From assembly GCF_003790525.1 (NCBI RefSeq), contig NZ_CP033635.1: a stretch of 64,000 nucleotides of DNA, one strand, 5' to 3'. Made by a program: the position numbers and the translations under genes. This document shows, piece after piece, positions 1 to 55,927 of this stretch. How positions within the stretch are numbered: position 1 is the stretch's first letter; each line of letters starts with the position of its first letter. Under the pieces are notes generated by a model that was not told the DNA's origin, did no database searches, and was given only the letters and a program-made list of their open reading frames with translations. The stretch comes from Escherichia coli. GTDB taxonomy: Bacteria > Pseudomonadota > Gammaproteobacteria > Enterobacterales > Enterobacteriaceae.

Positions 1-1089
1 AATTCCGGCAGGTTGATCGTTCACCAGCCAGCTACCAATCAGCATATAGCTGTCGCCGAATTTCGGTAACGGGTGGAATTGCTGAACAATCATCCCTTCT
101 TCGCCATACGGACCTTCCGCTGCTTCAATGGTTTTGCCGTTCTCAATGATCGACACGTTTGCGCCTTCACGGGAGAAGATCGGTTTAACCACATATTTTT
201 CCATTTGCGGATGATCATCTTCCGCAAAATAAGCGGGCAGCAGGTTCGGGTGATTCGGGAACATCTCCCACAGTAGCGGTAGAAGCGCTTTGTTGGAGAT
301 AATGCTCTTCCACGCCGGTTCCAGCCAGCGTACGCCTGCATCCTCCAGCTTGGTGGAGAACATCTCACGCAACATAAATTCCCACGGATACAGCTTGAAC
401 AGGTTGGAAATCACCTGATCCTGTAAATCCGTGAACTGACCTTTTTCACCTAACCCGATATCGTCGATGTAGAGGAACTCGGTAGCGATTTCAGCTTCCG
501 TCGCGCAGTCCTGCAAATACTGAATGGTTCCGCGATCTTCCACCGTGTCGCGACAGCAGGTGAGATGCAGCAACTGGAAGCCATACTGTTCACGCAGCTC
601 AACGAAGCGATCGATCAGCTTTTCTTGCAAACTGTTAAACTGGTCGCTGCCCTCCGGCAAGTTACCGGCGTTAAGCTGATCTTCCAGCCAGATCCACTGA
701 AAGAACGCCGCCTCGTATAGTGACGTTGGCGTATCGGCGTTATTTTCCAGAAGCTTAGGTTCGCCAGTGCCATCCCACGCCAGATCAAGACGCGAATAAA
801 GCGATGGCTGGTGCGTCAGCCATGACTGGCGCACAAAACTCCAGGTGTGTTTTGGTATGCGGAATTTGGTCATCAGCTCATCGCTGGCGATCACTTTTTC
901 CACCACTTTCAGGCACATCTGGTGCAGTTCGGCGGTGACTTCTTCCAGCTTTTCAACCTGAGCGAGGGTCAACTTGTAGTAAGCATCTTCACACCAGTAC
1001 GGCTCGCCGTACATGGTGTGAAAATTGAAACCGTATTCGTGGGCTTTTTCGCGCCAGTCCGGGCGCTCGGTAATACTGACTCTTTCCAT
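1..1089 (-). CDS. ygiC: glutathionylspermidine synthase-like ATP-grasp protein YgiC (3' end runs off window start)
   Basis: Reverse-strand ATG at 1089-1087; hand translation [24 protein letters not shown]... is continuous to position 1 with no stop; stop codon lies outside the window. Confidence 0.85.
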
Positions 1090-1094
1090 CGGTA

Positions 1095-1766
1095 TCAGCC
1101 ACCCATTGAACGAGAAGAGGTGCCGGTTGCGCTACGCTGCATAGTGCTTTGTTTGGCAACAGATTCACCAAAACCGCCACGGGTAACGGTAGTGGTGGTC
1201 GCCGGTTTTGGTGCCATTGCCGTCTTCGGTACGGTCATGGTGCGGCCTGGCTGGGCTGCGCCATAGTTTTTACCCGTCGCGTCGGTATATTTACCGTAAG
1301 CCGGGCTGGCCGGGTTTTTCGAGGAGAACAGCGGCTGCTGTGCAAATCCCGCGCCGCCGCCCATCAGACGCCCCATCATGTAACCGGCCATCAGCGGCAT
1401 CCAGAAACTTCCGCTGGATTGCTGGGCCTGCGCCTGGTTTTCTGGTGCCATACCAGCCTGGGCTGGTGCCTGCTGGCACTGACCTTCACCAAATTCAGCA
1501 ACACAGTCTTCACGGGTGGCGTATTTCGGCGCAGTACGTTCGGCTTCTTTCAGCGCATTGTTGTACGCGGTGGTACATTCGGCGCTTTTGCCTGGGTTTG
1601 CAGCTGAACAGTCGTCAGCATTTTGATAGAGAGACACTGTTTCATCACTCTTTTCACAGCCAGCCAGCATAAAAACAGTGGCAACCGCGAGAGCGACTGG
1701 TGTCAGATGGCGTGCGCTCCAGTTTTTGCGGAACGATGCGTGGCGTATGGATTTTGTCCGTTTCAT
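1095..1766 (-). CDS. ygiB: DUF1190 family lipoprotein YgiB
   Basis: ORF 1095-1799 trimmed to internal ATG at 1766 ([16 protein letters not shown]...); hydrophobic stretch ending LAGC suggests lipobox; 5 bp downstream gap to ygiC start. Confidence 0.85.
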
Positions 1767-1913
1767 TTTTGTCTTCCGGGACCAGTGGTAAATACCCATC
1801 AGAATAGAGGATGGCTGGTCGAAATTGAAGCGAGAAGGGGGAAGAATGCGGCAGATAACCCGTATCTTTACGTTGCCTTACGTTCAGACGGGGCCGAAGC
1901 CCCGTCGTCGTCA

Positions 1914-3395
1914 TCAGTTACGGAAAGGGTTATGACCGTTACTGGTGGTAGTGCGTGCGGATGTTTGCTGAACGACGGGTGCCGGGCTATCAGGCGCATA
2001 ACCATCAGCAATAGCATTCTGTTCCGGCGTTTGCGGGGCAACGTTTTCCGGATTAGTGGAAACCGGTTTGCTCAGCGCATTGTTCAGTGCCAGAAGATCC
2101 TGCTCGTTCAACGTACCCAGAGCTGATTTAATATTCAACTGGTTAATCAGGTAGTTATAACGCGCATTTGCCAGCTCTTGCTTGGCGTTGTACAGCGTGG
2201 TGGTCGCATCCAACACATCAACAATGGTACGCGTACCGACCGAGTAACCCGCTTCCATCGCGTCTAATGAGCTTTGAGCGGAAACTACGGCTTGTTTGTA
2301 GGCGTTAATGCTACTGATAGAAGCATTAATGTTGTTGAAGGAGGAACGTACGGTTTGTACGACGCTACGATGCGCGCTTTCCAGTTGCTCGCTGGCACCA
2401 ACAAAGTTGTACTGGGCCTGTTTCACCTGCGAGTTAACCATTCCGCCCTGATAAATCGGCAGCGAGAAGCTCAGGCCAACTTTGTTCTGGCCCATATTGC
2501 TATCGTCATACTGGGTACCAGCGGCACCACGGGTTTTCGAACCGCTATAAGAGGTGTCAGAAATCCCGGTAGAAGCCGTTAAATCCAGAGTCGGTAAGTG
2601 ACCATCCTGCGCCTGGCGAATTTGCTCGCGCGCCAGGTCCTGGCTCAAGCGCGCCTGTAACAACGACAGGTTGCGTTTTTCGGCTTCTTTCAGCAGCGTG
2701 TTAACCGGCTGTGGTTTGTCGGTTTTAAAGTTTTCGACATTCAGCGCCGCCAGTTCCGGATAGTAGTTACCGGTGATCTGGCGCAGCTGCTCTACCGCGT
2801 TATCAAGGTTATTACGTGCGGTCACTTCGTTCGCCAGCACGGTATCGTACTGTGCGCGGGCGTTCTGCACGTCAGTGATCGCTACCAGGCCCACGTTAAA
2901 ACGTTGGGTGGTTTGATCTAATTGACGGTAGATCGCTTCTTTTTGCGCCTGTGTATAGGAAAGAACGTCAATAGCATTCAACACGTTGAAATAAGCGGTC
3001 GCGGTGTTGAGGATCAAAGTTTGTTGATCGGTCTGATACGTGACGTCCTGAATCCCAGCTGCTTTTTCCTGCAGCGTTAACGCACGCCATTTCGACATAT
3101 CAAAAATGGATTGAGTTAACTGCAGGGACGCACTGGTCGCGTTAGAGTTGATGCCGTTCGCGTCGCGGTAGCCGTTGCTATAGGTGTAATCTGCACCTAA
3201 ACCTAGCTGTGGCAGTAATGGACTGCGCGCTTCATTAATTTTTTCAAAGGCAGCATCACGATCGGCGGCAGACTTACGCAATTCCGGGTTACTAAGGCGT
3301 GCTTGCTGATAAACTTGCATCAGGTTCTCGGCCTGGCTCAACGAACTGAAACCAGAAAGGCTCAGGCCGATAAGAATGGGGAGCAATTTCTTCAT
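1914..3395 (-). CDS. tolC: outer membrane efflux channel TolC
   Basis: ORF 1914-3434 trimmed to ATG at 3395 giving 493 aa with signal peptide MKKLLPILIGLSLSGFSSLSQA; sequence recognised as TolC. Confidence 0.95.
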   Translation of the reverse strand: MKKLLPILIGLSLSGFSSLSQAENLMQVYQQARLSNPELRKSAADRDAAFEKINEARSPLLPQLGLGADYTYSNGYRDANGINSNATSASLQLTQSIFDMSKWRALTLQEKAAGIQDVTYQTDQQTLILNTATAYFNVLNAIDVLSYTQAQKEAIYRQLDQTTQRFNVGLVAITDVQNARAQYDTVLANEVTARNNLDNAVEQLRQITGNYYPELAALNVENFKTDKPQPVNTLLKEAEKRNLSLLQARLSQDLAREQIRQAQDGHLPTLDLTASTGISDTSYSGSKTRGAAGTQYDDSNMGQNKVGLSFSLPIYQGGMVNSQVKQAQYNFVGASEQLESAHRSVVQTVRSSFNNINASISSINAYKQAVVSAQSSLDAMEAGYSVGTRTIVDVLDATTTLYNAKQELANARYNYLINQLNIKSALGTLNEQDLLALNNALSKPVSTNPENVAPQTPEQNAIADGYAPDSPAPVVQQTSARTTTSNGHNPFRN

Positions 3396-3475
3396 TTGCA
3401 TTCCTTGTGGTGAAGCAGTATTTAGCGCGATCAAACTGTAAAATTATTGCGGATTCTAGCAGAAGCCGCTACCGC

Positions 3476-8069: not shown

Positions 8070-10211
8070 TCAAAATTCCATTTTCACCGTGAATTGCACT
8101 TCACGAGGATCGCCAATCTGGTTGCCCAGATTATTTGTGGCGATGGAAGAGGTGTAATACGTTTTATCAAACAGGTTTTTGACGTTTAATTGCAGTGTGA
8201 CCGGATACTGCAATTTCATTTTGTATGCGGCGAAGGCATCGGCAACGAAATAGCCTGGCAGATAATAGTCAGCCCCATTGGTTGCCGAACGACGGCTTAC
8301 GCCATGTCCACCACCGCCAAACGTCAGTGTGTTATTGCCAGGCATGTTATGAATGTCATAAGTCAGGAATAGCGAACCGGTATGACGAGGAACATTCGGC
8401 AATGGTTTCCCTGCATAATCAGGATCCTCCAGAACCTTAGCATCGGTATAGCCGTAGCTGGCAATGATATTAATGTTTTCAGTTAATGCTCCCGCAAGGT
8501 CGACTTCTACCCCTCTTGAACGAACACGGCCTGCCGTTTTGGCAATGGTTTCATCACCAACACTTTCGGTATACAACACATTACGTTTATGGATATCAAA
8601 CAGCGCAATATCTGCGGTGATACCATCGAATAGCTCGAATTTTGCCCCGACTTCGTAAGCATTAGATGATTCCGGTGGAAGATCGCCAATGTAGCTGGCA
8701 ATTGACGACTGCGGCATAAATGTTTGCGAATAATTGGCAAATAAGGATACCGATGGCGTCAGTTTGTAGACTAACCCCAGTTTGGGAGTCCATTGTTCAT
8801 CGCGGCTGTCAGTATTGACATTAAAAGGACGGCCTTTACCCGCATACTGCGTGTAATACTGATAGCGGATCCCGGCGACGGCAATCCAGTTATCGGTCAG
8901 ATAGAGTGCGTCCTGTGCATACGCTGAGTAGCTCTCCTGTTTGATCGTCTGATCACTGTCCGACGCCGAAACCGTTGTACATTTGCTGGTATTACCATAA
9001 ACAGGGTTGTAGATATTGAAATCTTTAGCTTTTTTACAGCGAATCATATCTGTACGCAGAAGATCATAATATTCATATGACACCCCACCCAGAATCTCAT
9101 TATAGAATCCGGCAATATCAACATTCCCTTGCAGATCCGCACGAGTAGCATGCATACGCTGGGTAGATCCCTGAGTTGCATCAACACGCCGTGTCAGTGT
9201 TCCTGTCGTTGCATCATACGCGGTAACACGCGCCTGATTATCGCTGTATTTATCCTGGCTGTAGCTGTAATCAAAGCGCGCTGTCCACTGGCTATTGAGA
9301 TGATATTCTGCGTTGAGTTGCGCCAGATCGGACTTTCCATCTGTAATATTAAACGGTTCGTCAAAACGTATTTTTCGATCAACGTTTACGGGCTGTTTCG
9401 TCGTAAGGTCGAAAATCGTTCCACGATCGAACGGAGTTTTATAGTCCCGATGGGAATAGAGCATAGTTACTGTTGCATTATCACCAAACCAGGTGAGTGA
9501 CGGGGCAATAAATGTACTGCGCTCTTTACCGAAGTTTCGCCAGTAATCTTCATCCTGCACTTCCCCGGTAAGGCGATACGCCAGCTGAGTGCCTTCAATG
9601 GGACCTGTGATATCAAGTTGCCCAGTGCCGCCACCAAAACTGGAGGAGGTGGCTGAAACCGAACCATGGAATGTTTTTTCCGGGCGCTTGGTCACGACGT
9701 TAATCAGTCCACCAGGATCGAGAATGCCATACAGCGTGGAGGCCGGACCTTTTAGCACTTCCACACGTTCTGTGGCGGCGTTGAAACTGCGAGGAAGTAC
9801 AGTTCGCAGGCCGTTGGTCATGATGGAGCCATCCCGGTTAGCACCAAACCCACGACGTACAAAGGCGTCCTGAGTTCCGCCTAATGTATTGGTCTGTACC
9901 ACGTTACTGACGTTATAAAGCGCTTCATCCAGCGTCGTCGCATTCTGATTTTCCAGAACCTGATCGCTAACAGTATTGACCACCTGCGGGATATCCAGCA
10001 TCGGCATATCGGTTAATGTCGCCGTGGAAGTGCTCAGAGGTTGATAACCATCGGTTGCCTCAGTTGCGGTATTTGCATCTGCTGTAACAGTGATTGTTTC
10101 GCCATCTTTGGTCGTTACAGAGTCTGTTGCATGAATCATCGGTGCCGCAAAAAGCAGTGAAAAGAGCGCCCGACCTTTGAGTCCTGAGAATGAAGGTGTG
10201 AACATAGCCAT
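8070..10211 (-). CDS. TonB-dependent siderophore receptor (Fit-like outer membrane receptor)
   Basis: 713 aa ORF; signal peptide, TonB-box-like ETITVTA near N-terminus, C-terminal ...TVKMEF with terminal Phe typical of beta-barrel OMPs; organisation resembles the E. coli Fit system as I recall it. Confidence 0.85.
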   Translation of the reverse strand: MAMFTPSFSGLKGRALFSLLFAAPMIHATDSVTTKDGETITVTADANTATEATDGYQPLSTSTATLTDMPMLDIPQVVNTVSDQVLENQNATTLDEALYNVSNVVQTNTLGGTQDAFVRRGFGANRDGSIMTNGLRTVLPRSFNAATERVEVLKGPASTLYGILDPGGLINVVTKRPEKTFHGSVSATSSSFGGGTGQLDITGPIEGTQLAYRLTGEVQDEDYWRNFGKERSTFIAPSLTWFGDNATVTMLYSHRDYKTPFDRGTIFDLTTKQPVNVDRKIRFDEPFNITDGKSDLAQLNAEYHLNSQWTARFDYSYSQDKYSDNQARVTAYDATTGTLTRRVDATQGSTQRMHATRADLQGNVDIAGFYNEILGGVSYEYYDLLRTDMIRCKKAKDFNIYNPVYGNTSKCTTVSASDSDQTIKQESYSAYAQDALYLTDNWIAVAGIRYQYYTQYAGKGRPFNVNTDSRDEQWTPKLGLVYKLTPSVSLFANYSQTFMPQSSIASYIGDLPPESSNAYEVGAKFELFDGITADIALFDIHKRNVLYTESVGDETIAKTAGRVRSRGVEVDLAGALTENINIIASYGYTDAKVLEDPDYAGKPLPNVPRHTGSLFLTYDIHNMPGNNTLTFGGGGHGVSRRSATNGADYYLPGYFVADAFAAYKMKLQYPVTLQLNVKNLFDKTYYTSSIATNNLGNQIGDPREVQFTVKMEF

Positions 10212-10308
10212 TTAGTCTGTTATCCCAAAAACTCGCGGATTGTCGCGAGTGAAAATTGTTTCTTATTGCTCACTAAGCACTATCCGTTTGTTATTTCGCC
10301 ATCGGATA

Positions 10309-10330
10309 TGTAATTGAGAATCATTCAATC
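10309..10330. promoter_or_regulatory. candidate Fur box in divergent receptor/ABC operon control region
   Basis: TAATTGAGAATCATTCAATC resembles Fur consensus GATAATGATAATCATTATC; a second AATGAGAAAT-like element lies about 25 bp downstream; sits in an AT-rich 373 bp intergenic. Confidence 0.45.
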
Positions 10331-10584
10331 ACGCAGTAATGTAGTAGTAAATGAGAAATAACAAAAAATTGCTACATGTGTTTTTATGAAAAGTTTATAC
10401 AATTTGATTGCTTTTAATTTATTGATATTTAATGGTTTTGTTTTTATGTGCAAAAATATTTTACCTGTTATTTACCTTGTTTTTGTGTGGCTTTTAACTG
10501 CTTGACTACTACATTTTGTGGCGTCAAACTCTCAAAGGAGAATGAGTTTTATTTTTGTTTGTCTTTGATTAAGTTGGCGTACAC

Positions 10585-11394
10585 GTGGCACATAACGCAA
10601 AAGGGCAGGGGCTGATCCTCGACAATGTTTCTGCCGGGTATCACAAGAAAATCATTGTTGATGGTGTTTCTTTCTCCGTTCCCACAGAAAAAATGACCGT
10701 TCTGGTTGGGGCAAACGGCTGTGGAAAGTCGACGCTGCTCAGCACCATTGCTCGTATCTTGCAACCCATGGGCGGTTCGATATTGCTGGATGGTAAAGCG
10801 ATTCACGAGCAACCAACGAAAGCGTTATCCCGTAGACTTGGGATCTTGCCGCAGTCGCCATTATTGCCGGAGGGCTTAACCGTTTATGAACTGGTGTCGC
10901 GTGGGCGTTTTCCCTGGCAGAATTTCATTCGTCAATGGAGCGACGCCGATGAGCTGGCGGTAGAAGAGGCCCTGAAATTAACGGGTACGCAGGAGTTTGC
11001 ACATTTACCTGTTGAAAAACTCTCTGGTGGGCAGCGCCAGCGTTGCTGGATTGCGATGGTGTTGGCGCAAAAGACGCCTTATATCCTGCTGGATGAACCC
11101 ACAACCTGGCTTGATTTACGTTATCAGGTTGAAATTCTTGAGTTATTACATGATTTAACGCGTCATCACGGGCGTACAGTCGTCGTGGTGTTGCATGATC
11201 TGAATTTTGCCGTCAATTATGGCGATACGTTGATATTTTTACGCCAGGGGAAAGTGGTGCGTGTGTTGAATGAGGGGGAGCATTGCACGCCTGAGCTGGT
11301 AAAAGCGGTCTTTGACGTTGATGTTCACGCATCAATAAATCCTCTGACGGGAAAGCCGTTCTTCATGCCGTTTCGTGGTGTAGAAAAAGTATGA
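10585..11394 (+). CDS. iron-siderophore ABC transporter ATP-binding protein
   Basis: 269 aa from GTG at 10585 (exact start uncertain); Walker A GANGCGKST, ABC signature LSGGQRQR, Walker B ILLDEPTTWLD. Confidence 0.85.
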   Translation: MAHNAKGQGLILDNVSAGYHKKIIVDGVSFSVPTEKMTVLVGANGCGKSTLLSTIARILQPMGGSILLDGKAIHEQPTKALSRRLGILPQSPLLPEGLTVYELVSRGRFPWQNFIRQWSDADELAVEEALKLTGTQEFAHLPVEKLSGGQRQRCWIAMVLAQKTPYILLDEPTTWLDLRYQVEILELLHDLTRHHGRTVVVVLHDLNFAVNYGDTLIFLRQGKVVRVLNEGEHCTPELVKAVFDVDVHASINPLTGKPFFMPFRGVEKV

Positions 11395-12374
11395 TGCGCA
11401 CAGGGCTGGTTACTGTAATTTTCCTCGCCTTACTGCTGGTGGGATGCGTGGTATATCCAGGGATTGGTGCCCGATTTATTGCACCACAAACGGTGTTGCA
11501 GGCATTTCTTCATTTTGATCCGCAAAACTTCGATCACAACGTAATTGTAAGACTCCGTTTGCCGCGTTTAGCGGCAGCATTGCTTACCGGTGCTTCTCTT
11601 GGAGTTGCTGGTGCTTTGTTGCAGGCTGTCATTCGTAACCCATTGGGGGAGCCACATATTTTAGGCTTAAATGCCGGAGCCGCTCTTGCTGTCGTTGCTG
11701 CCAGTGCGCTTGGGCTGGCCTTTCCGGTTGGACGCCCACTGCTGGCATCTACGGGCGGCGCGTTATTGTTCCTGTTGATATTGCTGCTTTCCTCCGCAGG
11801 GCGTTCAGGGTTAACGCCAATGAAAGTTACTTTATGCGGCGTGGCGCTATCGGCGTTCGTGTCCTCAATAACGGCTGCAATCCTGATTCTTGACGAACAA
11901 ACACTGCTGGCGATGCGGACATGGCTAGCAGGTGATTTAGCGGGGCAGGATTGGGCGACGCTGGGTACGTCCGCCTGGTTTTCTCTGGGGGGATTTGTGT
12001 TAGCCCTTTACCTTGCACCCTCCCTTAACATGTTGGCACTGGGCGATCGCATGGCGCAGGGGCTGGGCGTCTCTGTATTCCGCACGCGAACATTCACCCT
12101 GCTTGCGATCGCGTTGCTCTGTGGCGCAGCCGTATCGATTGCTGGCCCCATTGGTTTTGTCGGCCTGCTAGTACCGCAGATTGTCCGGCGTCTGGTATCA
12201 GCGGATCTGCGCGTTCTGCTCCCTCTTTCAGCTTGTGTCGGCGCACTTTTGTTATTACTGGCAGATATTATTGCCCGTACGCTTTTCACACCCCATGAGT
12301 TAGCGACCGGTGTCATGACGGCGTTAGTTGGTGCGCCTGTTTTTGTCATTATGGCGACGAGGATGTTCAAATGA
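11391..12374 (+). CDS. iron-siderophore ABC transporter permease (FecCD family)
   Basis: 327 aa polytopic hydrophobic ORF; 4 nt start/stop overlap with upstream ATPase gene. Confidence 0.85.
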   Translation: MMRTGLVTVIFLALLLVGCVVYPGIGARFIAPQTVLQAFLHFDPQNFDHNVIVRLRLPRLAAALLTGASLGVAGALLQAVIRNPLGEPHILGLNAGAALAVVAASALGLAFPVGRPLLASTGGALLFLLILLLSSAGRSGLTPMKVTLCGVALSAFVSSITAAILILDEQTLLAMRTWLAGDLAGQDWATLGTSAWFSLGGFVLALYLAPSLNMLALGDRMAQGLGVSVFRTRTFTLLAIALLCGAAVSIAGPIGFVGLLVPQIVRRLVSADLRVLLPLSACVGALLLLLADIIARTLFTPHELATGVMTALVGAPVFVIMATRMFK

Positions 12375-13420
12375 GTCGGATAATGAACGTCGGGCTACGC
12401 CCACTACGTGTTGGTAAGTTTTCGACACTGGTACGCCCTAAAAATCTGCTGTTGCTTGGTGGGCTGTTCCTGCTTGCGGTTGGAATACTGATATTCGGTC
12501 TGATGCAGGGTTCTTTCTCTGTTCCGGCATCGGAAGTAGGACGAGCGTTGTTTGCTCCAGAAAACGTAAGCACAGACGCACGTTATATTGTGCAGGATAT
12601 TCGCTTGCCGAGAGTCATCATGGCATTGCTATGCGGGGCCATGTTAGGTATGGCAGGGGCCGCAATGCAATCCATTGCACGTAACGGCCTTGCCGATCCT
12701 GGTTTAATCGGCGTCAAAGAAGGATGTAGCGTGGCTGTGCTGTGGCTGATTTTCCAGTTTCCAATGCTGGGAATGTTCTGGCGTCCAGTGGCTGGTCTTG
12801 CTGGTGGCCTGTTGGTGGCTTTAATCGTGATTTTTTGTGCGCGCGATATTTCCCGCCCGCGATTTGTTCTGATTGGTATTGGTGTTTCCTGGTTTTTCGC
12901 CGCCGGTATCGGTGTATTTATGACCACTGCAGATGTTCGAGATGTACAAACTGCATTGATGTGGTTATCGGGAAGCCTGCATGCAGCTAACTGGATGTTA
13001 GTCGCTATTTCAGCCTGTTGGATGTTGCCAGCCGCTCTTTTATTGCTGTTCACCGCCAGGACGGCGGATATCGCTCTGCTTGGTCATCAGGTTGCAACCG
13101 GGTTAGGGGTGAATAGTTCTCGTCTGGCGTTGTTACGTGTCGCTGCACCCATAATCCTGACAGCCGTCTGCGTTTCGTGTGTTGGTAACATCGGTTTTGT
13201 CGGATTGATAGCACCCCATATATCACGTTTTATTCTACGTGGCGGGCAGACGACATTACTGCTGGGGAGCGCGGTATCGGGGGCGTTGTTAGTTATTCTG
13301 GCGGATAGCATTGGTCGTTTGGCTTTTTTGCCTTTGCAACTGCCTGCCGGAATCATTATCTCACTGATTGGTGGACCATTTTTTTTGCTACTGCTCTGGC
13401 AGCGCAGGAACAGTTTTTAA
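12371..13420 (+). CDS. iron-siderophore ABC transporter permease (FecCD family), second subunit
   Basis: 349 aa hydrophobic ORF paralogous to the preceding permease; 4 nt overlap with it. Confidence 0.85.
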   Translation: MSRIMNVGLRPLRVGKFSTLVRPKNLLLLGGLFLLAVGILIFGLMQGSFSVPASEVGRALFAPENVSTDARYIVQDIRLPRVIMALLCGAMLGMAGAAMQSIARNGLADPGLIGVKEGCSVAVLWLIFQFPMLGMFWRPVAGLAGGLLVALIVIFCARDISRPRFVLIGIGVSWFFAAGIGVFMTTADVRDVQTALMWLSGSLHAANWMLVAISACWMLPAALLLLFTARTADIALLGHQVATGLGVNSSRLALLRVAAPIILTAVCVSCVGNIGFVGLIAPHISRFILRGGQTTLLLGSAVSGALLVILADSIGRLAFLPLQLPAGIIISLIGGPFFLLLLWQRRNSF

Positions 13421-13430
13421 CGGGAGTTAT

Positions 13431-14378
13431 ATGCGTTTATTTTTTTCTCTGCTGATACTGTTGTCATTTTTTTCCCGTGCAACAGAACCTGTTCAGGTAT
13501 TTACTGATGATTTAGGGCGCAAAGTCACTGTTCCTGCTCATCCAAAGAGAATTGTCTCTTTACACGATCTTGATATCACTATTCCTCTGATTGAGCTCGG
13601 TGTACCTCCTGTCGCCAGCCACGGGCGAACTCGGCCTGACGGTAGCCATTTCATTCGATCTGGCGCGTTATTGACAGGTGTCGACTTTGATAATTCATCG
13701 ATCGCCTTTATTGGTACCGCTGATATTGATATTGAAGCGATTGTGGCGGCAAAGCCTGACCTGATCATCACAGAACCGACCCGTAATACGCCCATTGAAC
13801 AACTTGAAAAAATTGCGCCCACGGTGAGCATTGATCATCTCAAAGGGGGCGCGCCAGAAATCTATCGCAAGCTGGCAGAACTTACAGGAACGCAGTCGCA
13901 GCTGGCGATACTTGAACGCCGCTATCAGGCACAAATCAATGCGCTGAAGGCGACGCTGGACAGCCAAAAAATAACGGTATCGGTGATTCAGGCAAACCAG
14001 GGAAAAATTAATGTGATGCATAGCTATCATTCGCTGGGGCGGGTATTACGCGATGCTGGTTTTCGTTTTCCGCCGCTGATTGAGAGCATTCCTGAAGGTG
14101 GGCGAATGGATGTGAGCGCGGAGCGTTTACCTGAACTGGATGCCGATTTTGTTTTTGCAACCTGGCGCGGTGACACCGGTGGTAAACCTCAGGATGAGCT
14201 GGCAGCAATGGAAAAAGTCATGCCGGGATGGTGTCAGTTTCTGACTGCCTGTCGTTCCGGGCGTTATGTGCTGATTTCTCGTGAAGAGGCGATTTCTAAC
14301 TCCTTTGCATCTCTGGGGCTGATGGCTGCGCAGATACAATCACAAATTGCAGGGCGACCTCTACCGGAGGATAAATGA
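13431..14378 (+). CDS. periplasmic siderophore-binding protein (ABC substrate-binding, class III)
   Basis: ORF 13368-14378 trimmed to ATG at 13431 preceded by GGGAG; signal peptide MRLFFSLLILLSFFSRA. Confidence 0.8.
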   Translation: MRLFFSLLILLSFFSRATEPVQVFTDDLGRKVTVPAHPKRIVSLHDLDITIPLIELGVPPVASHGRTRPDGSHFIRSGALLTGVDFDNSSIAFIGTADIDIEAIVAAKPDLIITEPTRNTPIEQLEKIAPTVSIDHLKGGAPEIYRKLAELTGTQSQLAILERRYQAQINALKATLDSQKITVSVIQANQGKINVMHSYHSLGRVLRDAGFRFPPLIESIPEGGRMDVSAERLPELDADFVFATWRGDTGGKPQDELAAMEKVMPGWCQFLTACRSGRYVLISREEAISNSFASLGLMAAQIQSQIAGRPLPEDK

Positions 14379-15262
14379 TCCAGAAAGATAAAGCGCGGGT
14401 TGATATTTTTGGTGAGCGTTTTCGCACTCGCGCGAGTCAGTTAACGCCTGGGTTAAGAGTTGTCGCCAGCTACATTAATGAGCATCGTGAAGTGGTACTC
14501 GAGCAAACGGCGATGGAAATTGCGGCCACGTTGAACACTTCCGATGCCACAGTTATCAGGGCTATACAGGCCCTGGGGTTTGCCGGGCTGCGTGATCTGA
14601 AACGCACTCTGGAACAGTGGCTTGGTCCAGCCCTTAGTTCCAGCGAAAAGATGTCTACGACGGTGAGTAACTTGACGAGCGATGTTAACACCGCAATCGA
14701 CTTTGTTCTTGAAGGGCATTTGTATACCTGTAATGTCCTGTCAGAGCCTGAAAACCGCCACGCGCTTGCGCAAGCTGTAGCGTTGTTGGTGCAGGCACGG
14801 CAAGTCGCTATTTTTGGCATTGGCGCTTCGGGTATCCTGGCGGACTATACCGCACGACTATTCAACCGCATAGGTTTGCCTGCCACGGCACTAAACCGTA
14901 CGGGTATTGGCCTTGCCGAGCAACTGATCGCGCTTCAACGTGGCGATGTTCTGATCATGATGGCGCAAAAATCTGCGCACCGGGAAGGGCTGACAACGCT
15001 TCGTGAGGCGAGGCGGCTGGGGATCCCTGTTATTTTGCTGACAAACGCGCTGGATTCACGTTTTAGCAAAGACGCCAGTATCGTGATTCATGTTCCGCGC
15101 GGGGATGAAAAAGGGAAAACGCCGCTACATGGTACGGTATTGTTGTGTCTGGAAATGATTGTCTGGTCGGTAGCTTCCGCAGTGCCGCAGCGTGCGGTTA
15201 AAACCATTAAGCGAATTAACGATTTCCATCGAGGACTGAAAACGGGAAGAAAGAATGGCTAA
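14375..15262 (+). CDS. RpiR/MurR family transcriptional regulator (HTH plus SIS domain)
   Basis: 295 aa; N-terminal HTH region and C-terminal SIS-like sugar-phosphate binding region (IFGIGASG...); 4 nt overlap with binding-protein gene. Confidence 0.8.
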   Translation: MIQKDKARVDIFGERFRTRASQLTPGLRVVASYINEHREVVLEQTAMEIAATLNTSDATVIRAIQALGFAGLRDLKRTLEQWLGPALSSSEKMSTTVSNLTSDVNTAIDFVLEGHLYTCNVLSEPENRHALAQAVALLVQARQVAIFGIGASGILADYTARLFNRIGLPATALNRTGIGLAEQLIALQRGDVLIMMAQKSAHREGLTTLREARRLGIPVILLTNALDSRFSKDASIVIHVPRGDEKGKTPLHGTVLLCLEMIVWSVASAVPQRAVKTIKRINDFHRGLKTGRKNG

Positions 15263-55060: not shown

Positions 55061-55927
55061 TTACCCCTGACGCTTATCTTCCGTATTCGTCTCGAAATCA
55101 CTGGCGTCATGGCGCTCATGCAACTGCTCGTTCAGCGGCCCGTTGGTGCGGTTAACAATACGCCCACGCTTCACCGCCGGACGTTCGCCCACTTCTTTCG
55201 CCCAGCGTTGTACGTGTTTATAACTTCCCGCATCAAGAAACTCTGCGGCATCATACACGCCGCCTAACACCACGTTGCCAAACCACGGCCAGATCGCCAT
55301 ATCCGCAATGGTGTACTCATCGCCCGCAACAAACTTGTGCTGCGCCAGTTGCTTATCCAGCACGTCGAGCAGGCGCTTGGCTTCCATGGTAAAGCGGTTG
55401 ATGGCGTACTCAATTTTCACCGGCGCGTAATGGTAAAAGTGACCAAAACCACCGCCGAGGAACGGTGCCGCGCCCTGTAACCAGAACAGCCAGTTCAGCG
55501 TTTCAGTCCGTTTTGCCAGATCCTGCGGCAGGAAGTAGCCAAATTTCTCCGCCAGATAAAGCAGAATCGATCCAGACTCAAACACGCGGATCGGTGGATT
55601 ATGGGTATGGTCGCGCAATGCCGGGATCTTCGAGTTTGGGTTCACTTCGACAAAGCCGCTGGAGAATTGATCGCCATCGCCAATACGAATCAGCCAGGCG
55701 TCGTACTCTGCACCAGTAACGCCCAGCGCCAGCAGCTCCTCAAGCATAATCGTTACTTTCTGTCCGTTTGGCGTTCCCAGCGAATAGAGTTGCAGCGGAT
55801 GTTTGCCCACCGGCAGCGTTTTTTCATGCGTCGGACCAGAAACCGGGCGATTGATATTGGCGAACGCGCCGCCAGCGGATTTATCCCACGTCCAGACTTT
55901 CGCGGGCTGATAAGTATTGTCTGTCAT
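55061..55927 (-). CDS. yghU: glutathione S-transferase-like disulfide reductase YghU
   Basis: ORF 55061-55975 trimmed to ATG at 55927 (MTDNTYQPAKVWTWDKSAGG...), 288 aa. Confidence 0.9.
   Translation of the reverse strand: MTDNTYQPAKVWTWDKSAGGAFANINRPVSGPTHEKTLPVGKHPLQLYSLGTPNGQKVTIMLEELLALGVTGAEYDAWLIRIGDGDQFSSGFVEVNPNSKIPALRDHTHNPPIRVFESGSILLYLAEKFGYFLPQDLAKRTETLNWLFWLQGAAPFLGGGFGHFYHYAPVKIEYAINRFTMEAKRLLDVLDKQLAQHKFVAGDEYTIADMAIWPWFGNVVLGGVYDAAEFLDAGSYKHVQRWAKEVGERPAVKRGRIVNRTNGPLNEQLHERHDASDFETNTEDKRQG

Follow-up and report, generated by a model that had tools for sequence, protein, structure and literature searches.

YgiC as a probable peptide-polyamine ligase paired with the DUF1190 lipoprotein YgiB, and its anciently diverged paralog Gss, in a stretch of Escherichia coli DNA

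Organisation of the tolC-ygiB-ygiC and gss loci

The window, a stretch of 64,000 nucleotides of Escherichia coli DNA, harbours ygiC and gss together with ygiB and tolC (Table 1). It shows three mismatches in 64 kb to E. coli SMS-3-5. Of the complete E. coli genomes, 5426 in number, one lacks the region and the other 5425 contain it. DNA identity with the ygiC locus of E. coli K-12 is 98.7%, and the K-12 locus has an identical tolC-ygiB-ygiC context. In the SMS-3-5 background ygiC is followed by the assT-dsbL-dsbI island, whereas in K-12 ygiD follows directly.

Table 1. Coordinates of the features discussed, numbered from the first letter of the window.
Feature	Position	Strand	Description
ygiC	1..1089	-	Codons 1-363 of 386; partial CDS, stand-alone GSP_synth ATP-grasp acid-amine ligase
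ygiB	1095..1766	-	DUF1190 lipoprotein, 223 aa; PF06693 187 bits, NF008655 404 bits
YgiB Ser-Met-Gly-Gly codons	1098..1109	-	Putative; proposed acceptor site of YgiC
CpxR-like box GTAAGGCAACGTAAA	1867..1881	-	Pattern match in the tolC-ygiB gap, ~100 nt upstream of the ygiB ATG
tolC	1914..3395	-	Outer-membrane channel gene, upstream, 147 nt from ygiB; ORF and RefSeq annotation
gss	56132..57991	+	Bifunctional glutathionylspermidine amidase/synthetase, 619 aa; ORF, RefSeq annotation
Gss CHAP amidase domain	56285..56578	+	Residues 52-149, including Cys59; PF05257 at 42 bits
Gss GSP_synth domain (pre-ATP-grasp and ATP-grasp)	56882..57976	+	Residues 251-615, the YgiC-homologous part

Translation of the minus strand from the ATG at position 1089 opens a frame of 363 codons. 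Because ygiC passes the edge of the window, its final 23 codons and the stop are absent, and catalytic Arg366 is among the missing residues. The initial annotation had given the coordinates and strand of ygiC correctly, without mentioning that the gene runs off the start of the window. All 363 encoded residues are identical to those of the E. coli K-12 crystal structure PDB 7UK8, and the cut at the window edge is the sole difference from K-12 YgiC (b3038; UniProt "putative acid--amine ligase YgiC"; RefSeq NP_417510.1 "peptide--spermidine ligase YgiC"). The protein matches PF03738 (GSP_synth) with 507.1 bits (E = 4e-152; cut-off 29.3). The AlphaFold model of YgiC, with pLDDT mostly above 90, aligns with 7UK8 at a TM score of 0.94 (Foldseek). 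Crystal structures of this group are available for YgiC (7UK8, 7UKA) and for the related YjfC (7UK6, 7UK7).

YgiB possesses a basic, conserved N-terminal region, the lipobox LAGC, four more invariant cysteines, the motifs FMPxMxGxMxG and RGGFG, and a basic tail with SMGG as its last residues. This tail was present in 79 of 79 Enterobacteriaceae YgiB orthologs among the matches listed. Five nucleotides separate the ygiB stop from the ygiC ATG. Two 569-aa proteins from E. coli assemblies (P0001 and P0002), which resemble fusions of DUF1190 and GSP_synth, are frameshifted read-throughs and not real fusions.

The gss gene lies where the initial annotation had placed it, and its product belongs to the NCBIfam equivalog NF007801 (1281 bits; cut-off 882). 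It also matches PF03738, with 221.4 bits (E = 2.7e-65; cut-off 29.3). The synthetase domain uses ATP and Mg2+ to phosphorylate the glycine carboxylate of glutathione, with N1 of spermidine as the acceptor of the acyl group, and the CHAP domain hydrolyses the product. Activation of a peptide C-terminal glycine carboxylate has been described for the chemistry of Gss (PMC2427367). According to the RefSeq annotation, gss adjoins yghU, which encodes a glutathione-dependent oxidoreductase.

Comparison of YgiC with Gss

The paralogy of YgiC with the synthetase domain of Gss, as proposed in the initial annotation, was confirmed by pairwise alignment and by their common PF03738 domain. Residues 22-362 of YgiC align with residues 241-594 of Gss at 27% identity (BLASTP, E = 8e-35), and identity ranged from 27 to 29% across the alignments made. 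The similarity extends to the fold, as Foldseek pairs the AlphaFold model of YgiC with structure 2IO8 of Gss at a TM score of 0.75 (E = 1e-30); other structures of Gss are found among PDB 2IO7-2IOB and 3O98. YgiC scores 154.8 bits against NF007801, below the cut-off of 882, and is thus not a Gss equivalog. The predicted lack of an N-terminal CHAP domain also held, as PF05257 matches Gss and not YgiC, and neither YgiC nor YjfC has residues aligned opposite C59 or H131 of Gss.

The seven catalytic residues that serve ATP and Mg2+ in Gss all have identical counterparts in YgiC, in line with the homology that the initial annotation had expected. R316, D318, E330 and N332 of Gss correspond to R100, D102, E115 and N117 of YgiC, and K498, K533 and R598 to K267, K302 and R366; the first six YgiC residues are encoded inside the window and R366 outside it. 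Their roles in triphosphate, Mg2+ and transition-state binding are taken from work on Gss (PMC2427367). Glu391 of the polyamine site of Gss is likewise present, as E184. In contrast, the glutathione pocket differs, with one of five residues identical (D387 of Gss, D181 of YgiC) and the others replaced (S335 by T120, E392 by D185, A443 by P235, and T446 by F238). In addition, C338 of Gss is S123 in YgiC, and the charges of K607 and D610 are swapped in D375 and R378. This remodelling of the peptide pocket suggests that YgiC would not make glutathionylspermidine.

This is in agreement with the published biochemistry, as related at second hand in reviews, citing papers and database names. Both YgiC and YjfC reportedly lack Gsp synthetase activity (Sui et al. 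2012, via PMC11762307 and PMC12506659), and peptide-spermidine ligase activity in vitro was reported in 2023 (Pederick et al., via PMC11762307; also PMC12568646). Activity on short peptides in vitro is related at second hand in PMC11762307, which gives the physiological substrate as unknown. The initial annotation, which called the substrate unresolved, still stands for the physiological substrate, and is dated with regard to the crystal structures, the in vitro activity published in 2023 and the RefSeq name of the protein. The amine used by YgiC in vivo may be other than spermidine.

Conservation of the gene context

Synteny was examined in the 80 closest Enterobacteriaceae orthologs, obtained from a scan of genome contigs with an alignment of YgiC and YjfC. 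Among the matches listed, the gene immediately preceding the ligase gene was ygiB in 74 of 74 loci, at a distance of 2-6 nt, and tolC was upstream of ygiBC in 65 of 65 loci. For a wider sample, a library of representative proteins was searched with YgiB and eight distant DUF1190 loci were inspected. A GSP_synth gene followed the DUF1190 gene in seven of these eight lineages, and tolC was beside the DUF1190 gene in none of the eight loci. The conserved partner of ygiC is ygiB, the DUF1190 gene, whereas adjacency to tolC was confined to the Enterobacteriaceae sampled.

Transcription and probable Cpx control of ygiBC

The assignment of tolC, ygiB and ygiC to one operon was borne out, as the three genes lie on one strand with gaps of 147 and 5 nt, and the region between tolC and ygiB shows no terminator-like site on the minus strand. 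A simple sigma-70 scan of this gap found no promoter. The gap contains a CpxR-like box, both half-sites of which were present in 57 of 57 Enterobacteriaceae loci checked among the matches listed, with one variable spacer base. A preprint on C. rodentium describes a Cpx-induced promoter of ygiB's own, and opposite Cpx regulation has been reported for ygiB and tolC. From the motif and the C. rodentium preprint, ygiB in E. coli appears to have its own internal Cpx-type promoter. The ygiBC transcripts would have two sources, read-through of tolC transcription and, probably, this separate promoter.

Probable function of YgiC and its proposed relation to YgiB

Gss and YgiC are best explained as two known enzymes of the E. 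coli core genome that belong to the glutathionylspermidine-synthetase ATP-grasp family and separated anciently, with YgiC as a peptide-polyamine ligase; we give this reading a probability of about 0.85. YgiC retains the complete ATP/Mg2+ and acyl-phosphate machinery and would work as an ATP-dependent peptide-polyamine (spermidine) ligase. The homology, domains, catalytic residues and gene context come from the present analysis, and the biochemistry of YgiC comes from the literature, as cited in later papers. The paralogy, the missing amidase domain, the structure of YgiC and the in vitro activity are already published, and both genes are annotated.

ygiC and the translationally coupled ygiB probably act as a unit, and this pair may be part of a Cpx/Psp-type envelope-stress response and not of efflux as such. 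An envelope-stress context for the DUF1190-ligase pair is suggested by the yjf-type operon with its PspA homolog, by the conserved CpxR-like box and by the reported Cpx induction. The initial annotation had hinted at a role linked to the envelope or to efflux. The envelope part is plausible as a link to envelope stress, whereas the efflux part fails beyond the Enterobacteriaceae sampled, given the distant loci without an adjacent tolC. An efflux link of ygiBC, for which the published genetic interaction with tolC is the sole support, is not generally supported.

That gss and ygiC share one window, as the initial annotation had pointed out, could be read as a local duplication or as a glutathione-polyamine supercluster. 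The two genes are on one replicon, 55 kb apart, and yghU is located beside gss. However, they are separated by some 45 unrelated genes, among which are the hyb operon, exbBD, parC/parE and qseBC, and no gss was present near the distant ygiC-type loci examined. Neither a sister relation of YgiC to enterobacterial Gss nor conserved gss-ygiC linkage beyond the Enterobacteriaceae was seen. YgiC shares 27-29% identity with Gss as against 51% with YjfC, whose gene is at 4.41 Mb in K-12, and the chance that some two of three paralogs come to lie no more than 55 kb apart is about 0.065-0.07 for a genome of 5.07 Mb. With such low identity, so many unrelated genes in between and this chance arithmetic, a duplication or supercluster is very improbable and was rejected. 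The co-location itself is unremarkable, as chance gives it at ~0.07, the two paralogs diverged anciently and the closer YjfC is encoded elsewhere.

Two proposals concern the substrate of YgiC. In one, the enzyme turns a cytoplasmic peptide or metabolite other than glutathione into a small soluble peptide-polyamine conjugate, which would be exported or would be sensed by the envelope. YgiB would be a partner in the periplasm, for binding or for metal chelation, and TolC would be the exit; this corresponds to the efflux link hinted at in the initial annotation. We know of no candidate small-peptide substrate for YgiC, and we consider the proposal possible but somewhat unlikely. It fits the invariant tolC-ygiB-ygiC order in the Enterobacteriaceae loci listed and the short-peptide activity reported at second hand. 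It also fits the description of DUF1190 as a metal-chelating lipoprotein of polyamine-linked PspA operons, since the conserved cysteines and Met-rich motifs are compatible with binding of a ligand or metal. It is further in keeping with a published genetic interaction, in which loss of ygiBC and yjfMC was associated with the growth defect of tolC on minimal glucose. Deletion of ygiBC, however, reportedly did not affect the localisation, folding or activity of TolC (PMC11762307), which speaks against the proposal. The opposite Cpx regulation reported for ygiB and tolC also counts against it, as does the absence of tolC next to the eight distant DUF1190 loci and to yjfM-yjfC of E. coli.

In the other proposal, the natural "peptide" of YgiC is YgiB itself. 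The terminal glycine carboxylate of its SMGG end would be phosphorylated and amidated with spermidine or another polyamine, in the cytoplasm or at the inner membrane, before or during export, and YjfC would modify YjfM (HWGG) likewise. This would refine the best explanation and not exclude it, and as a specific claim we regard it as doubtful. It is consistent with the tight adjacency of DUF1190 and GSP_synth genes, seen in both E. coli pairs, in all 74 Enterobacteriaceae loci among the matches listed and in seven of the eight distant lineages. The extreme C-terminus of DUF1190 is also conserved. In 108 representatives, clustered at 50% identity, it has S in 73%, W or F in 65%, G in 87% and G in 83%. 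Of these tails, 81% terminate in GG, compared with 2.8% expected from tail composition, and no final residue other than G, S, A or T occurs. Nonetheless, the YgiB-type tail is of low complexity, with internal SWGG-like repeats in many homologs, and in ~19% of DUF1190 members S, A or T stands at the end in place of GG while the ligase gene is still adjacent. The chemistry would suit a protein tail, as Gss activates a peptide C-terminal glycine carboxylate and the activity reported in vitro is peptide-spermidine ligation. There is a eukaryotic chemical precedent, in which the C-terminal GG of SUMO or ubiquitin is joined to N1 of spermidine (PMC12270671). The pocket residues by which YgiC departs from Gss (T120, T122, S123, P235, F/W238, D375 and R378) are mostly kept in DUF1190-linked ligases, which were compared at 43-59% identity and carry single substitutions in three cases. 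However, no covariation between the tail type (GG or S) and the ligase pocket residues was detected in ten pairs.

Localisation limits this proposal further. YgiB has a lipoprotein signal peptide, the cysteine of which is 99% conserved in DUF1190, and it was found in outer-membrane vesicle proteomes, whereas YgiC has no N-terminal signal peptide evident by eye and is classed as cytoplasmic by proteomics. A lipoprotein and a cytoplasmic enzyme could therefore meet only before export. The N-terminal region of the DUF1190 signal peptide, MKR[TS]KxINLxR[FM]RK, is unusually conserved and could be a cytoplasmic docking leader, and YgiC has been recovered from inner-membrane fractions. When YgiC was modelled with AlphaFold with the C-terminal 34 residues of YgiB attached through a linker of 30 residues, the tethered tail gave no docking signal, with a pLDDT of ~25 that equalled the reversed-tail control (enzyme part above 90), and the model was thus uninformative about the tail. 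A second transmembrane segment in YgiB, which would put the tail in the cytoplasm, was unsupported, as the central segment has a Kyte-Doolittle value of 0.7-0.8. A Tat signal on DUF1190 is also unlikely, as a twin-arginine-like motif was present in one of 101 family members.

If YgiB were indeed modified, E. coli would possess an envelope lipoprotein with a covalently tethered polyamine, controlled by a stress response of the Cpx/Psp type. Such a modification would be new among those described for bacterial proteins, and it would account for the widespread two-gene module. For YgiC as a peptide-polyamine ligase, the conserved DUF1190-ligase pair, the near-invariant GG tail and the apparent stress wiring move the question of the substrate from TolC to YgiB.

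Comparison with known systems

RimK is an ATP-grasp ligase that acts on the C-terminal carboxylate of ribosomal protein S6. It is a precedent for the hypothesised chemistry alone, as it adds glutamates and belongs to another ATP-grasp clade than YgiC. Similarly, SUMO-spermidine conjugation serves as a precedent alone, since it proceeds through E1/E2 adenylation and thioester chemistry, unlike the route proposed for YgiC.

A closely related protein is YjfC of E. coli (b4186; RefSeq NP_418607.1 "peptide--spermidine ligase"), which is 51% identical to YgiC and has the same active-site residues, with W in place of the pocket residue F238. Similar to ygiC, yjfC is located directly after a DUF1190 lipoprotein gene, yjfM, the product of which also ends in GG. 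Unlike ygiC, it has no tolC adjacent and belongs to the yjfIJKLMC operon, which is of an envelope-stress type (PspA/DUF2170/DUF2491/DUF350).

Trypanothione synthetase-amidase of trypanosomatids (PDB 2VOB, 2VPM and 2VPS) has a synthetase domain homologous to YgiC (phmmer E = 2.7e-34; TM 0.65-0.67) and shares the ATP-grasp acyl-phosphate mechanism with the Gss/YgiC family. Unlike YgiC, it is bifunctional, and its substrates are glutathione together with spermidine or glutathionylspermidine.

ygiC and gss in the window

The window differs from positions 3346032-3410031 of E. coli SMS-3-5 (NC_010498.1, reverse complement) by three mismatches in 64 kb, and 5425 of 5426 complete E. coli genomes carry its first 3.5 kb. 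The encoded YgiC is identical at 363/363 residues to the crystallised K-12 protein (PDB 7UK8). Since complete ygiC has 386 codons, the stop and the 23 codons before it lie outside the window, a truncation absent from the initial annotation. The position assigned there to gss is borne out by a full ORF scoring above the cut-off (882 bits) of NF007801, the equivalog for bifunctional glutathionylspermidine amidase/synthase.

In the SMS-3-5-type background, an aryl-sulfate sulfotransferase-dsbL-dsbI island separates ygiC from ygiD, left of window base 1 (NC_010498.1 3410588-3413756; 1648-3444 of contig locus L001), unlike K-12, where ygiD directly follows ygiC. The divergent yghU and gss, about 200 bp apart, form a small glutathione-related pair. 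tolC begins at the ATG at 3395 rather than at the TTG at 3434. For ygiB, a mechanical ORF list uses the ATG at 1799 (234 aa; 1767-1799, minus strand), and the annotated ATG at 1766 is preferred because M1, K2 and R3 are conserved in the family alignment.

Features of the window
Feature	Coordinates	Strand	Remarks
ygiC (partial)	1-1089	-	ATG at 1089, stop-free frame to base 1, 363 codons
ygiB	1095-1766	-	5 nt gap to ygiC
CpxR-like box GTAAGGCAACGTAAA	1867-1881	-	tolC-ygiB gap, ~100 nt upstream of ygiB
tolC	1914-3395	-	147 nt from ygiB
TonB-dependent siderophore receptor, FecCD-type ABC transporter, MurR/RpiR regulator genes	8070-15262		between parE and ygiN
TRAP transporter small-permease gene	27383-27865	-	RefSeq pseudogene, internal stop; strain-specific sugar-acid/TRAP cluster
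yghU	55061-55927	-	glutathione-dependent disulfide oxidoreductase
gss	56132-57991	+	619 aa; 1281 bits vs NF007801

Relationship between YgiC and Gss

YgiC and Gss are paralogs. BLASTP aligned residues 22-362 of the window's YgiC with 241-594 of Gss (27% identity, E = 8e-35), and both match PF03738 (GSP_synth; 4e-152 for YgiC, 2.7e-65 for Gss). The AlphaFold model of YgiC (enzyme pLDDT mostly >90) matches Gss 2IO8 with TM 0.75 (E = 1e-30), YgiC 7UK8 with 0.94, YjfC 7UK6 with 0.95 and trypanothione synthetase with ~0.66; glutathione synthetases match more distantly. Pfam detected the CHAP amidase domain only in Gss (residues 52-149). Both the homology to the Gss synthetase domain and the lack of CHAP in YgiC, as initially annotated, thus hold.

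This paralogy is already known, given published reviews, PDB structures (YgiC 7UK8, 7UKA; YjfC 7UK6, 7UK7) and RefSeq, which names both K-12 products "peptide--spermidine ligase". A 2025 TolC review (PMC11762307) describes tolC as expressed together with ygiB and ygiC, and YgiB as a lipoprotein predicted to reside in the outer membrane, its function unknown. The review cites Sui et al. (2012) for YgiC being homologous to the Gss C-terminal domain yet without Gsp synthetase activity, Pederick et al. (2023) for peptide-spermidine ligation by YgiC in vitro, and Dhamdhere and Zgurskaya (2010) for the association of ygiBC with the impaired growth that tolC mutants show on minimal glucose. The missing synthetase activity is likewise stated in PMC12506659, and the ligase activity in PMC12568646. 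The initial annotation was largely right and partly outdated: its view of the YgiC substrate as unresolved still applies to the physiological substrate, but not to the in vitro reaction.

The presence of gss and ygiC in one window is not meaningful. They lie 55 kb apart with ~45 unrelated genes between them, YgiC is 27-29% identical to Gss versus 51% to YjfC, and yjfC is located at 4.41 Mb in K-12. By arithmetic, some pair among three family members falls within 55 kb in a 5.07-Mb genome with a chance of ~0.065.

Seven residues that bind triphosphate and Mg2+ and stabilise the transition state are strictly conserved between Leishmania trypanothione synthetase and E. coli Gss (PMC2427367, which also names the Gss residues touching glutathione (S2) and the polyamine (S3)). 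A three-way alignment found all seven in YgiC and YjfC; the initial annotation had suggested checking such catalytic conservation. In the glutathione pocket the sole identical residue is an Asp (D387/D181); in the polyamine cleft E391 is retained and the K607/D610 pair is charge-swapped. By this residue comparison, the ATP-grasp acyl-phosphate machinery of YgiC is intact and its acid-substrate pocket remodelled, which agrees with its score of only 155 bits against NF007801.

Corresponding active-site residues
Site	Gss	YgiC
ATP/Mg2+ site	R316, D318, E330, N332, K498, K533, R598	R100, D102, E115, N117, K267, K302, R366
Glutathione pocket	S335, D387, E392, A443, T446	T120, D181, D185, P235, F238 (YjfC W236)
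Polyamine cleft	S337, C338, E391, K607, D610	T122, S123, E184, D375, R378

Genomic context of ygiC

The proposed tolC-ygiB-ygiC operon agrees with the co-orientation and short gaps of the three genes, and no minus-strand terminator-like site was found in the tolC-ygiB gap. Among the best 80 Enterobacteriaceae loci listed, ygiB lies directly upstream of ygiC in all 74 whose flanks were long enough, at gaps of 2-6 nt, and tolC precedes them in 65/65. The CpxR-like box fits the CpxR consensus given by a study on C. rodentium; 57/57 Enterobacteriaceae loci preserve its two half-sites, and one spacer base is the sole variable. This fits the report from that study that ygiB has its own, Cpx-induced promoter, while tolC expression is reduced by Cpx.

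We also examined eight distant representatives of DUF1190, the lipoprotein family of YgiB and YjfM, 29-43% identical to YgiB. A GSP_synth gene follows immediately downstream in seven, the exception being on a 1.5-kb contig. None is adjacent to tolC, and the usual neighbours are DUF350, K+ channel or DUF2491 genes, a yjf-type context. The second E. coli paralog pair, yjfM-yjfC, has the same layout within a PspA-containing operon, which a published comparative study describes as well. Because of these loci, DUF1190 plus ligase appears to be the conserved functional unit, whose associations point to envelope stress, with a lineage-specific tolC linkage. The envelope part of the role initially suggested for YgiC is plausible, whereas its efflux part over-read a neighbour constant only in the Enterobacteriaceae sampled.

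On metagenome contig Ga0172367_10006822 (locus L086, 991-2154), two GSP_synth genes flank the DUF1190 gene; the upstream copy is probably catalytically dead, since E115, N117 and K267 are replaced by A, S and H. Two apparent DUF1190-GSP_synth fusions from E. coli (P0001, P0002; VEE15_39300, VEE48_08280; 569 aa) are frameshifted ygiB-to-ygiC read-throughs, that is, sequencing artefacts or pseudogenes and not natural fusions.

The YgiB C-terminus as a candidate substrate

YgiB (…SSRSMGG) and YjfM (…ARGHWGG) both end in Gly-Gly. With YgiB as query, phmmer identified 794 relatives among 1.84 billion representatives, from which 108 near-full-length, non-frameshifted DUF1190 representatives clustered at 50% identity were analysed. 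Their tails carry S at position -4 (73%), W or F at -3 (65%), G at -2 (87%) and G at -1 (83%); no tail ends in anything but G, S, A or T. Gly-Gly termini make up 81%, versus 2.8% expected from tail glycine content. The family also possesses the lipobox Cys (99%), four more invariant Cys within an acidic domain, FMPxMxGxMxG and near-invariant RGGFG motifs, and a basic tail. At the position following the lipidated Cys, DUF1190 members differ (S 35, G 19, D 18, E 17), so they are not all sorted alike between the inner and outer membranes.

The Gss reaction proceeds through activation of the carboxylate on a peptide's C-terminal glycine (PMC2427367), and YgiC reportedly ligates peptides to spermidine. 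By analogy, each ligase may amidate the last Gly of its partner (YgiC on YgiB, YjfC on YjfM), a tentative proposal to which we assign a probability of about one in four. DUF1190-linked ligases largely share the pocket residues that set YgiC apart from Gss, with single substitutions in three. However, YgiB bears an export signal of the lipoprotein type and has been found in vesicle proteomes, while YgiC is cytoplasmic, though recovered in inner-membrane fractions, so modification would have to precede or accompany export. The N-terminal part of the signal peptide ahead of the lipobox, MKR[TS]KxINLxR[FM]RK (P0121-P0270), is more conserved than is usual for signal peptides, which might point to recognition in the cytoplasm. 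Roughly one in five family members terminates in Ser, Ala or Thr instead of GG yet still has an adjacent ligase, and tail type does not visibly covary with pocket residues in 10 pairs. When AlphaFold modelled YgiC with the YgiB tail joined to it, the tail pLDDT was ~25, equal to that of a reversed-tail control, which bears neither way on the proposal. Spermidine amidation of C-terminal Gly-Gly, as proposed here for YgiB, is known on eukaryotic SUMO and ubiquitin, by different enzymology (PMC12270671).
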